Below, piece after piece: positions 20,895 through 62,040 of a stretch of 64,000 nt of DNA. The translations under genes and the position numbers were made by a program. The number at the start of each line of letters is the position of its first letter. Position 1 is the first letter of the stretch. Origin of the DNA: an uncultured Gemmatimonadales bacterium (GTDB lineage Bacteria; Gemmatimonadota; Gemmatimonadetes; Gemmatimonadales; GWC2-71-9); contig CAWGSK010000030.1 in NCBI GenBank assembly GCA_963825055.1, forward strand, positions 75,208-139,207, in the 5' to 3' direction. The notes under the pieces are model-generated. The model worked only from the letters and a program-made list of their open reading frames with translations, ran no database searches and was not told the DNA's origin.

Positions 20895-22145
20895 ATGAAG
20901 TTGTCGCATCTGACCGCCGCCCTCGCGCTGGCGCTGCCCCTGGTGACCGGGTGTCGTTCCGACGATGCCCTCCAGCCGCCCACCCCGAGTGGCGGGGAAC
21001 TGTTTGACCGGTACGTGGCCATGGGCAACAGCATTACGGCCGGCTTCCAGTCCGCCGGCATCAATGACAGCACCCAGCGCCAGAGCTACGCCGTGCTGTT
21101 CGCCAATGCCGCCGGGACCGTCTTCAACATCCCGACCCTGCAGGGCCGCGGGTGCCCGCCGCCGTTCACCAACAACGTGCTGCAGACCCGCGTGGGCGGT
21201 GGATCGGCCAACGACTGCGACCTCCGCGCAGCCACGCCGGCCCCCCCGCTGTTCATCAACAACGTCGCGGTGCCGGGCGCCCGCGTGCAGGAACTGCTGG
21301 ACAATTTCGGCACGCCCGCATCCGCCTCGAACGCCCTGACCCTCTTCATCCTGGGCGGACGCACGCAGCTCGAAGCCATGCAGGAACTGCACCCGACCTT
21401 CGTCTCCCTGTGGATCGGGAACAACGACGTACTCGGCGCGTTGACCAGCGGCACCAACCCGGGCAACCCGGCTCTCGTGACCCCGCTGGCGACGTTCCAG
21501 GCGCAGTACACCGAAATCCTCGACAGCATCACGGCCGAGGGAGCGGGGGCAGTCCTGATCGGGGTGGCCGATGTCAGCGCGATTCCCTACGCATCGCGCG
21601 GGTCGGTCTACTGGTGCCTCAAGACCGGTGCGTGTCCCGGAGTGCCGGCCGCTCCTTTCCCGCCGAACTTCACCGTGGACAACAGCTGCGCCCCCGCAGC
21701 GGCCATTCCGACCGCGATCGGGGACAACACGCTCGTTCCCTGGACAATCGGTGTCGTCCGCATCCTCACTGCGGCGCAGGACGTGGGCAATCCATACACA
21801 GTGGATTGCACAGTGGACAGTGACGTCGTGACCCCCTCCGAACTGGCCAACCTCCAGCAGGCCGTCGCCTCATACAATGCCTTCATCCAGGGCGAGGCCG
21901 CCACGCGTGGGTGGGCCTACGTGGACATCAACGCCCTGCTGGGGCCCGAGATCGGCACCCGGATTCCGCTCTTCCCGGACATCACGGGGGTGGCCACCGG
22001 CGCGCCGGTAGGCTTCGGACCACTCTTCAGCCAGGACGGAGTCCACCCCTCCGGTCTTGCGCATCAGCTCGTTGCCGATGCCATGGCCCAGACGGTGAAC
22101 GCGTTCTACGGAACGGACCTCCCGGTCCTGGTTCCAGTCCCCTGA
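20895..22145 (+). CDS. SGNH/GDSL-family lipolytic lipoprotein
   Basis: Lipobox LVTGC; GNSITAG, WIGNND, DGVHP. Confidence 0.87.
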   Translation: MKLSHLTAALALALPLVTGCRSDDALQPPTPSGGELFDRYVAMGNSITAGFQSAGINDSTQRQSYAVLFANAAGTVFNIPTLQGRGCPPPFTNNVLQTRVGGGSANDCDLRAATPAPPLFINNVAVPGARVQELLDNFGTPASASNALTLFILGGRTQLEAMQELHPTFVSLWIGNNDVLGALTSGTNPGNPALVTPLATFQAQYTEILDSITAEGAGAVLIGVADVSAIPYASRGSVYWCLKTGACPGVPAAPFPPNFTVDNSCAPAAAIPTAIGDNTLVPWTIGVVRILTAAQDVGNPYTVDCTVDSDVVTPSELANLQQAVASYNAFIQGEAATRGWAYVDINALLGPEIGTRIPLFPDITGVATGAPVGFGPLFSQDGVHPSGLAHQLVADAMAQTVNAFYGTDLPVLVPVP

Positions 22146-22170: not shown

Positions 22171-22210
22171 GGGCGGGTGGGAGCTCCGGCTCCCACCCGC
22201 CCATTGCATT
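22171..22210 (+). terminator. Intrinsic terminator-like hairpin
   Basis: Perfect 14-bp stem GGGCGGGTGGGAGC-TCCG-GCTCCCACCCGCCC, then ATTGCATT. Confidence 0.7.
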
Positions 22211-22304: not shown

Positions 22305-22384
22305 AACCACGGAGACACGAAGGGCGCGGAGTCACCCGTTGGGTTCCTCCGTGGAGACTCTGTGTTCTTCGTGTCTCCGTGGTT
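22305..22384. repeat. 9-nt-unit inverted repeat element, copy 1
   Basis: AACCACGGAGACACGAAGGGCGCGGAG (22305-22331) pairs with CTCTGTGTTCTTCGTGTCTCCGTGGTT (22358-22384): 23 Watson-Crick plus 4 G-T pairs. Confidence 0.9.
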
Positions 22385-22420
22385 CAGCAGGCCTTCGGAG
22401 CGACCACAGCAAGACAGCGA

Positions 22421-22807
22421 CTACAGCAGCAGACGGCGCACCCCCCGGGTCAGGAGAGGCACGTTGAAGTTGATTAGCAGCCCGGCGGATATGCCGCTCA
22501 AACGCATATAGGTCATCAACTGGGCGGAGTGGACCGGGAGGAGACGCTCGAGCGCTTTGAGTTCGACGATCAGAACATCCTCAATCCGGAAGTCGATCGT
22601 GAAACAGTGCTGGATGTGCGTGCCTTTGTACTGCACCGGCAGAGGGACCTCGCACCTGTGATGCAGGCCCCGTAAGGTGAGTTCGTGGGACAGGCAGCGG
22701 CGGTAGGCGCTTTCCAGAAGTCCCGGACCCAGATGGCGGTGGACTTCAATCGCTGCGCCGAGCGTTCGCTCGCTGACAGTATTCGTCGGATGCTGGACCA
22801 GTCCCAT
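22421..22807 (-). CDS. GxxExxY protein (PD-(D/E)XK nuclease-like)
   Basis: 128 aa; GPGLLESAY, IDF...IVELKA, QLMTY, GLLINFN; GGAGGG RBS upstream of ATG 22807. Confidence 0.92.
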   Translation of the reverse strand: MGLVQHPTNTVSERTLGAAIEVHRHLGPGLLESAYRRCLSHELTLRGLHHRCEVPLPVQYKGTHIQHCFTIDFRIEDVLIVELKALERLLPVHSAQLMTYMRLSGISAGLLINFNVPLLTRGVRRLLL

Positions 22808-22948
22808 CTTCCCTCCGCAGCCTGCAGCATTACGCCGGTGGGAGCTAACCCCGTCACCCTCATGCTGCGGGACGGCACGATTCCGTGCACGGCCCAACTT
22901 CAGCAGCCGCACCTTGTTAGCTTTGGAAACCACTTCCGGCGAGGATGC

Positions 22949-23536
22949 ATGGCCTGGACCCGTGATCGCGCAGAGGAACTGATGCTCGAGTACACCGCGT
23001 CGGAATCGCTGCGGAACCACATGTACTGCGTGGAACAGGCGATGCGGGCCATGGCCCGGCGGGCCGGTGCCGATGAAGAGGCATGGGGCATCGTCGGCCT
23101 CCTGCACGACTACGACTACGAACGCTTCCCCAACGATGCGCGTGCTCCCGACCGTGATCACCCGGGCGAGGGGGTCCGCCGCCTGGCCGCGGAAGGTTTC
23201 CCCGAGGAATGGCAGCAGGCGATCCTGGGCCATGCCGATTACACCGGTGTACCGCGCACGACCCCCATGGCCCATGCCCTCTTCGGCGTGGATGAGCTCT
23301 GCGGGTTCCTGGTCGCGTGCGCGCTGGTGCGTCCCTCCAGGAGCCTGGCGGATCTCGAAGTCAGGAGCGTGAAAAAGAAGCTCAAGGACAAGGCCTTCGC
23401 CCGCGGCGTCAATCGGGATGATGTCCGGCGCGGCGCCGAGGAACTGGGCGTGGACCTCGACGCGCACATCGCTTTCCTGCTGGATGCCCTCCGGCCCCAC
23501 GAGGCACGGTTTGGACTCGGCCATCCGGCACCCTGA
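22949..23536 (+). CDS. HD-domain (HDIG-like) predicted hydrolase
   Basis: LRNHM, GLLHDYDYE, AILGH, DELCG, KKKLKDKAFARGVNR. Confidence 0.88.
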   Translation: MAWTRDRAEELMLEYTASESLRNHMYCVEQAMRAMARRAGADEEAWGIVGLLHDYDYERFPNDARAPDRDHPGEGVRRLAAEGFPEEWQQAILGHADYTGVPRTTPMAHALFGVDELCGFLVACALVRPSRSLADLEVRSVKKKLKDKAFARGVNRDDVRRGAEELGVDLDAHIAFLLDALRPHEARFGLGHPAP

Positions 23537-33535: not shown

Positions 33536-33581
33536 CCGGCCAGGTCGTGTGCTGGGATGGTCCCGGCGGTGAACCGTGGCG

Positions 33582-33665
33582 TTGAACACGGAGGGCGCGG
33601 AATTCACGGAGGTCGCGCGGAAGAACAGGCAGGCATTCCGTGTCTTTCGTGTCTTCCGTGGTGAA
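33582..33665. repeat. 9-nt-unit inverted repeat element, copy 2
   Basis: cacggaggg cgcggaatt cacggaggt ... ttccgtgtc tttcgtgtc ttccgtggt. Confidence 0.85.
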
Positions 33666-61949: not shown

Positions 61950-62040
61950 TGAACCACGGAAATACGAAATCCACGGAATGCATTTGAGCGTCTTGCCTGT
62001 GTTCCGTGTGTTCCGTGTGTTCCGTGACTTCCGTGGTTCA
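61950..62040. repeat. 9-nt-unit inverted repeat element, copy 3
   Basis: Perfect 12-bp terminal IR TGAACCACGGAA/TTCCGTGGTTCA; right arm ttccgtgtg ttccgtgtg ttccgtgac ttccgtggt. Confidence 0.9.

Follow-up and report, generated by a model that had tools for sequence, protein, structure and literature searches.

GxxExxY genes between inverted arrays of short boxes: a candidate nuclease-repeat cassette in an uncultured Gemmatimonadales bacterium

Two independent nuclease folds, HUH and GIY-YIG, have been paired with dispersed bacterial repeats. In the Ssn/NTS systems (SRM), as far as the accessible part of PMC11893778 describes them, a small single-domain gene for a GIY-YIG nuclease of single-stranded DNA sits in a repeat-gene-repeat arrangement; the repeat, a local palindrome of 20-50 nt, is dispersed in many copies over gene-bearing genomes, and its variants are paired with variants of the protein. 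In the REP/REPIN-RAYT systems, according to the accessible text of PMC3337134, a repeat-flanked gene encodes an HUH/Y1 transposase, while palindromic REPs with pairing spacers form inverted repeats around a variable spacer that are dispersed between genes and are of a type specific to the protein. Inverted pairs of heptamer repeats are also found in the intergenic space of Xanthomonas and Nostoc, where the accessible text of PMC4692102 links them to no four-helix-bundle gene.

By analogy, the GxxExxY cassette described here may work like RAYT/REP or Ssn/NTS, yet it belongs to neither. It shares with the Ssn/NTS systems the small single-domain nuclease gene, the repeat-gene-repeat layout, the abundance of dispersed repeats and the pairing of repeat and protein variants, with the RAYT systems the flanked gene, the dispersed inverted repeats around a variable spacer and the protein-specific repeat type, and with the Xanthomonas and Nostoc heptamers the gene-less inverted pairs. 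It differs from the first in a predicted PD-(D/E)XK fold and in direct arrays of 7-nt boxes with no selected pairing seen, and from the second in non-palindromic boxes, in protein groups that mix phyla and in the absence of an HUH protein. Ssn/NTS proper was rejected on the missing GIY-YIG domain, and REP/RAYT proper on the missing HUH/Y1 gene, the direct-repeat boxes, linkers without co-variation and no wobble bias. Literature searches limited to main texts outside subscription journals found no published account of GxxExxY/PF13366 with flanking repeats.

The window is the whole stretch of 64,000 nucleotides that was analysed. Within a run of plus-strand genes, its minus strand holds an intact open reading frame of 128 codons plus TAG at 22421-22807, with a ribosome-binding-site-like GGAGG (22812-22816, minus strand) 4 nt 5' of the ATG. 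The product matches TIGR04256 (E 3e-39, 133.9 bits against a curated cut-off of 35) and PF13366 (E 2e-38, 131.5 bits, cut-off 22) and no other profile, HUH/Y1 transposase and GIY-YIG domains being absent. Both the reading frame and the family given in a preliminary description of this DNA are thus confirmed, as are the plus-strand flanks, an SGNH/GDSL lipase gene on the left (20895-22145) and an HD-domain gene on the right (22949-23536). The slightly weaker GC bias noted there also holds: the gene has a GC content of 0.61 and a GC3 of 0.76, against a GC3 of 0.79-0.88 in three neighbours. FadL, lipase, HD and cardiolipin synthase genes make up the neighbourhood, which contains neither cas genes nor a CRISPR array.

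GxxExxY/PDDEXK_3 is listed as 'Unknown' in the accessible part of a survey of PD-(D/E)XK proteins (PMC3424549). For the window protein we predict a PD-(D/E)XK nuclease fold of the RecB/Cas4 type. The top structural match of the predicted structure (pLDDT 94.8) is Cas4 SSO0001 (4ic1; rmsd 3.1 over 97 aligned residues), with a Z of 7.9 that falls in the middling range of the tool, and the other leading matches are PD-(D/E)XK enzymes. The active-site residues of this type, E32, D72, E82-x-K84 and Q96-xxx-Y100, are all retained; across 66 sequences E32, D72, E82 and Q96 are invariant, and K84 and Y100 nearly so. Mapped by order onto the motifs in the accessible part of PMC8610317, the succession of E, D, ExK and QxxxY would correspond to that of Cas4/RecB nucleases. 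Cas4 differs in its four-cysteine iron-sulfur staple, its length of about 200 aa and its CRISPR-cas context, whereas the GxxExxY protein has 128 aa and neither of the other two; none of the invariant or nearly invariant columns in the 66 sequences is a cysteine, and Cas4 proper was rejected on the lack of conserved cysteines and of CRISPR-cas neighbours. A sequence search of solved structures gave 0 matches, a Foldseek search with the model none at E 0.001, and the PADLOC anti-phage models (2023 library) 0 families at E 0.1.

The repeats beside the gene are built from boxes of the consensus C[AG]C[AG][AG]A (CRCRRA). Two downstream arms make up an 80-nt hairpin at 22305-22384, which lies 36 nt from the GxxExxY stop, as first described, and has 18 perfect outer pairs. 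Its far arm (22305-22331, plus strand) has three boxes with spacings of 8-9 and is inverted relative to the near arm (22348-22384, minus strand), which has four boxes with spacings of 8-9-11. This near arm bears the spacing signature of the protein clade of the window gene, since 8-9-11 occurs in 20 of 54 flanks of that clade versus 5 of 376 other flanks. The palindromic 9-nt unit of the preliminary description has to be revised: the unit is repeated, but at spacings of 8, 9 and 11 rather than strictly every 9 nt, and the boxes are direct repeats, not palindromes. Upstream of the gene, a lone CACGGA box stands at 22882-22887 (minus strand). Two further hairpins, described earlier as nuclease-free, are indeed present and appear to be dispersed pairs without a gene, likewise of the CACGGA type, one at 33585-33662, 49 nt past the stop of a DUF5916 gene and before a cytochrome b561 gene, and one at 61950-62040, between a convergent DUF2911 gene and a PD40-repeat gene; a stable fold is found for the latter (z -5.3) but not for the former, which at 33575-33665 folds no better than shuffles (z -0.7).

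Comparison across prokaryotes reveals the canonical element as a GxxExxY gene between inverted arms of 2-4 boxes with a period of 8-11, a forward arm upstream and an inverted one downstream. This arm>gene<arm layout occurs at 44 of 75 GTDB-wide loci (from the best 80 of 451 matches to the window protein, hence its own part of the family), which span many bacterial phyla and an archaeon, at 22 of 42 loci of the same family or order and at 22 of 56 metagenome loci. Distal control windows 1 kb away from the gene show it at 0/64 (GTDB) and 0/35 (family/order), and HD genes, taken as a further control, have any arm at 1 of 28 loci. The expected enrichment of the repeat near GxxExxY genes is therefore found, and flanking on both sides (59% among the best 80 of 451 in GTDB, 52% in the family/order set) compares with 42% of Ssn genes in the accessible part of PMC11893778. 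Left out of the flank counts were 8 own, fragmentary or duplicate loci, the locus L026, which had no match, and loci with less than 250 nt of flank. A backwards pattern proved unclean as a flank control (any match at 8/42 and 21/75), probably through the reversed word within the arms themselves; the comparison therefore relies on the distal windows and the HD genes. The two arms of a full cassette lie 400-550 nt from each other.

The same repeat is scattered over the source genome (G000; 3.5 Mb, 87% complete), with 45 arms at 30 loci, far above chance: the same search, which merged three patterns and included period-8 arms such as those in the window, returned 0 arms both when the genome was reversed and when it was complemented. 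A rough split of the loci gives 12 of the CACGGA type, 12 of the CACAAA/CACGAA type and 6 others. Both GxxExxY genes of this genome have an arm within 200 bp, versus 48 of 4876 roughly called ORFs, and the second of them (C13:290845-291385) lies between a forward and an inverted arm 541 bp apart. Separate from these, a CACAAA/CACGAA-type pair at C4:33332-33935 surrounds some 540 bp resembling an internal fragment of a transposase, which we take to be of the IS3 family: the end of orfA, an A-rich frameshift motif and the start of orfB, fused directly to one arm and without IS ends. Similar gene-less pairs with a related spacer, at C13:76-178 and C13:1283-1386, flank a 987-bp gene that by eye reads as an aldo/keto reductase, an arrangement resembling a composite cassette. 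Identical arms and flanks on separate contigs (C8:78505 and C14:17446) are possibly an assembly or binning duplicate.

Gene and repeat also go together between genomes. Among 120 genomes of the same family, in which kin are not independent, the number of three-box arrays correlates with that of gene matches (Spearman 0.59; rho 0.07 for the backwards pattern), and at least six arrays occur in 21 of the 45 gene-bearing genomes but in 3 of the 75 that lack it. The suggested dependence of element number on gene number thus has its counterpart in this family; elements are generally scarcer where the gene is lacking, but three such genomes, G050 (98% complete), G066 (83%) and G107 (97%), have 15-29 array matches and yielded no gene in a search as permissive as E 1. 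Of the 45 gene-bearing genomes, 14 have no more than one strict array. Eight congeneric pairs discordant for the gene gave five differences in the expected direction, two ties and one opposite. Contig C7 of G107, a 97% complete assembly in 7 contigs in which no GxxExxY gene was found, carries box runs of up to about 11 with uniform linkers.

On a tree of 130 proteins, 94 of them labelled by box type and 36 with fewer than four box matches left out, the box type changes 27 times, against means of 48.5 when labels are shuffled freely and 46.8 when shuffled within phyla, and none of 300 shuffles reaches 27. Kin share box labels, so this result alone does not show co-evolution, and shared descent could suffice. 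One CACGAAG-armed protein group spans five phyla, however, which indicates that arms travel with the gene; four of its rows have 97/93 support on a 42-row tree. The phylum label of the window protein's relatives, Gemmatimonadota, is taken from their nearest matches. Dispersed arrays carry the box type of a resident gene in G133 and G085; G081, whose gene is broken, is an exception. The gene itself is under purifying selection, with dN/dS of 0.03-0.24 in 13 close pairs.

From these sequence comparisons we favour, with about even confidence, a reading in which the window holds an old resident copy of a widespread cassette. Its small Cas4/RecB-fold protein would recognise the inverted arms of 7-base boxes as iterated sequence sites and nick or cut the DNA near them, and repair by the host would insert copies of the cassettes, and of arm pairs without a gene, between genes. 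A very widespread family, GxxExxY/PDDEXK_3, would in this way gain a candidate substrate that can be read from the DNA beside each gene; the same reasoning had led to the Ssn nucleases of single-stranded DNA. Should the protein prove to act on these boxes, its fold would join HUH and GIY-YIG as the third to be independently paired with a repeat dispersed in bacterial genomes, and the family would be a source of sequence-specific nucleases of very small size.

A bolder version, which we put forward tentatively as possible rather than probable, regards GxxExxY cassettes as minimal self-mobilising elements of about 450-550 bp. The 128-aa Cas4-like enzyme would load on the end boxes, cut, and move or replace the cassette without transposase, integrase or target-site duplication, each clade reading its own box. 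If true, nature would offer a large collection of tiny nucleases with sequence specificity, and one class of intergenic repeats, of 8-9 bases and present in bacteria as well as archaea, would be explained. For the favoured reading, mobility of the GxxExxY family is indicated by the trpE-trpG junction of a betaproteobacterial family, where 5 of 23 scored genomes have a cassette (L160, L166, L167, L175, L187), with 7 of 30 trpG loci left unscored for want of trpE in view. Between L160 and L167, trpG is 97% identical (dS 0.51) and GxxExxY only 59% (dS saturated). A single clade for the five cassettes is rejected with an AU p of 0.028, a soft value in that the 42-row subset was picked after the first tree; with four rows the AU test gave p 0.057 and missed significance. 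The contrast between L160 and L167, together with the rejected clade, suggests that cassettes replace each other or land repeatedly. The junction is a general insertion hot spot, with other inserts in seven unscored loci (L170, L173, L174, L185, L186, L188, L190).

Some details of this junction deserve mention in their own right. Four dissimilar GxxExxY cassettes occur there, with a right end directly adjoining the ribosome-binding site of trpG, and several of the other inserts end in a shared motif just before trpG that resembles an integration site. The left arm in L167 and L175 is translated as the N-terminus of the GxxExxY protein.

At the site of the window copy, the empty alleles that had been predicted for relatives do occur: SGNH and HD genes are adjacent, 9-267 nt apart, at 18 of the 29 best HD loci, none of which (0/29) has a GxxExxY gene, and the contig X1 bridges the site with the insert absent. 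The spacer upstream of the HD gene has been colonised repeatedly by different repeat families, other short-period (7/8-mer) arrays often filling it (L032, L034, L037, L040, L045, L050, L053, L055). The nearest empty alleles are too diverged for element ends to be mapped; inspection by eye of the flanks of 40 elements showed no target-site duplication, and no sharp boundary between empty and filled sites was seen. On plasmids, GxxExxY genes were matched in 8 of 72,556 records, all below 60% identity, and in phages none was found.

The spacers of gene-less pairs differ between genomes. In the source genome, 0 of 28 spacer pairs reach at least 80% identity, versus 35 of 120 in G044; the median identity is 0.38-0.48 in G000, G081 and G133, whose spacers are unrelated, and 0.78 in G044. 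Both relics and replicating derivatives therefore seem to exist. A MITE or DDE insertion sequence was rejected on the same figures, as clonal internal sequence is absent from the source genome and present only in G044. The G044 family (L382-L389, L062) is a clonal arm-spacer-arm unit of about 188 bp, both dispersed and in BIME-like tandem arrays, one of which begins some 100 nt past a GxxExxY gene; such tandem arrays close to the gene are a further likeness to REP/REPIN-RAYT.

This G044 family, with its shared spacers and its array close to a gene, is an argument for an alternative in which an Ssn- or RAYT-like enzyme acts on the folded, single-stranded two-arm hairpin, the gene-less hairpins being non-autonomous REPIN-like replicators. 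We consider this unlikely. Some Cas4-type enzymes do act on single-stranded DNA, and the nearest folds of the window protein include enzymes of this type. Arms nearly always come as inverted pairs, and the window hairpin is very stable on the plus strand (z -8.1), the only mismatches of its outer stem being four G-T pairs. The diversity of spacers elsewhere is no obstacle either, as those of REPINs are likewise diverse in the accessible text of PMC3337134. Selected base-pairing, however, is not apparent in the set as a whole. The linkers of partner arms match at 0.459, versus 0.465 for random arms of the same genome (49 pairs, p 0.62). G-T against A-C pairs count 154:171 on the gene strand of the cassettes (29:48 per cassette; of the 103 pairings some 8 are spurious). 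For the sense strand of the host the ratio is 17:17, and wobble pairs show no one-sidedness (p 0.63); the window hairpin, with its four G-T pairs on the plus strand, is the exception to this absent strand bias. Seven gene-bearing cassettes have a linker match of 0.54 versus 0.35 in a cross-genome shuffle (p 0.03), a null that ignores the genome consensus; this excess allows some pairing or homogenisation. The arms of full cassettes are, moreover, some 400-550 nt apart, and one of the window copies folds no better than shuffles. Given the absence of linker co-variation and of any G-T preference for one strand, iterated sites for a protein describe the boxes better than a REP hairpin does, and the earlier idea of the hairpin as substrate is not borne out.

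The gene might also be a mere passenger. Here the arm pairs would be moved or generated by another enzyme or by host recombination together with various small cargoes, gene-less pairs would be deletion relics, and GxxExxY would be kept for an unrelated host or addiction function. The genes of four-helix-bundle proteins (23S_rRNA_IVP, PF05635) make this conceivable, as they too are small genes between inverted arrays of 7- or 8-mers. To our knowledge, no nuclease fold occurs in these proteins, so the layout alone is no proof of catalysis. Eight PF05635 genes are present in the source genome (for example C13:112759, C13:276166 and C9:7481), with inverted 7- or 8-mer arrays that mostly have their own word. 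Other cargo is found as well: one arm pair of the source genome encloses the IS3 fragment, and in L196 an arm found at the same galE site adjoins a different cargo. The mutually unrelated spacers of G000, G081 and G133, the arrays that persist in three genomes without the gene, and a window copy that has been kept under selection despite its lost left arm point in the same direction. We nevertheless judge this alternative, too, improbable. IVP genes encode other proteins and their repeat words vary from gene to gene, whereas GxxExxY arms share one core across phyla, and none of the eight IVP genes of the source genome has GxxExxY boxes, which speaks for a box specific to the family; in relatives the count is 3 of 24, all look-alike 8-mers. 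Likewise, the box type tracks the GxxExxY tree and crosses phyla with the gene, and the dispersed arrays match the resident gene in G133 and G085, if not in G081.

A role of the arms as RNA devices is very unlikely. Pairing within a transcript would loop out or excise the gene as in an rRNA intervening sequence, or gene-less pairs would serve as terminators or stabilisers. A composition classifier, checked on just 6 genes of the window, does place 63 of 104 cassettes in the orientation of both neighbours and 20 in the opposite one; arms frequently adjoin a stop codon or a ribosome-binding site, and in the window hairpin the G-T pairs lie on the sense strand of the host. In the full set, however, there is no G-U bias on the sense strand of either gene or host and linkers are unpaired, while both copies of the source genome, the C13 copy and the window copy that is among the 20, are antisense to both neighbours. 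The window element contains no Rfam family, and a promoter and terminator scan was empty. An rRNA intervening sequence proper was rejected on the intergenic position between protein genes, the lack of an Rfam family and the lack of G-U bias. Finally, the idea that an ordinary hypothetical gene and a simple-sequence repeat are neighbours by accident, for which one might cite the quarter to a third of GxxExxY loci that have no arm under the pattern (18/75 from the best 80 of 451, 11/42 in the family/order set, 19/56 in metagenomes, some of them with variant boxes), is refuted by the flank enrichment, and the genome correlation, the tree test and the layout conserved in L215 make it next to negligible.

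Returning to the favoured reading of an old resident copy of a box-binding cassette, the history of the window locus can be traced through the metagenome locus L215. This is an orthologue (HD 91%, SGNH 78% and GxxExxY 71% amino acid identity) that is oriented alike, with a single box on the upstream side and a complete pair of arms on the downstream side; a GC-rich host hairpin that follows the lipase gene in the window (22171-22202) is also kept there. Between the two, GxxExxY has a dN/dS of 0.17 (0.205/1.21), and the partial flanking genes have dS of 0.66 and 0.97. A diverged GxxExxY piece on the contig X6 has the same place and spacing as the window site, and together with the layout of L215 this argues for an old and inherited insertion. 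The lone box lies 125 nt before codon 17, that of L215 at 127, and the innermost left-arm boxes of L088, L089, L230 and L238 at 127-128. Standing at the clade position of the innermost left-arm box, it suggests that the left arm of the window cassette has eroded to this one box.

The preliminary description had taken the window copy as the autonomous form, which does not fit: the canonical form is arm>gene<arm, and the window copy has mostly lost its left arm, in a layout shared with its orthologue. It is better described as a resident helper or relic with a gene still under selection, and the locus illustrates that a gene can stay selected at one site after arm loss, as a domesticated helper would. 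The hairpin at 22305-22384 is probably the gene-less remnant of a tandem duplicate, judging from its clade-type 8-9-11 spacing, from L222 and L224, where the gene's own left arm is repeated directly downstream of it, and from the pile-ups in G044 and G085. The latter genome has 12 gene matches and 64 arrays, and its region C3:1488300-1507200 (L391, L392) contains GxxExxY copies, some whole and some 5'-truncated, piled up in tandem together with their arms.
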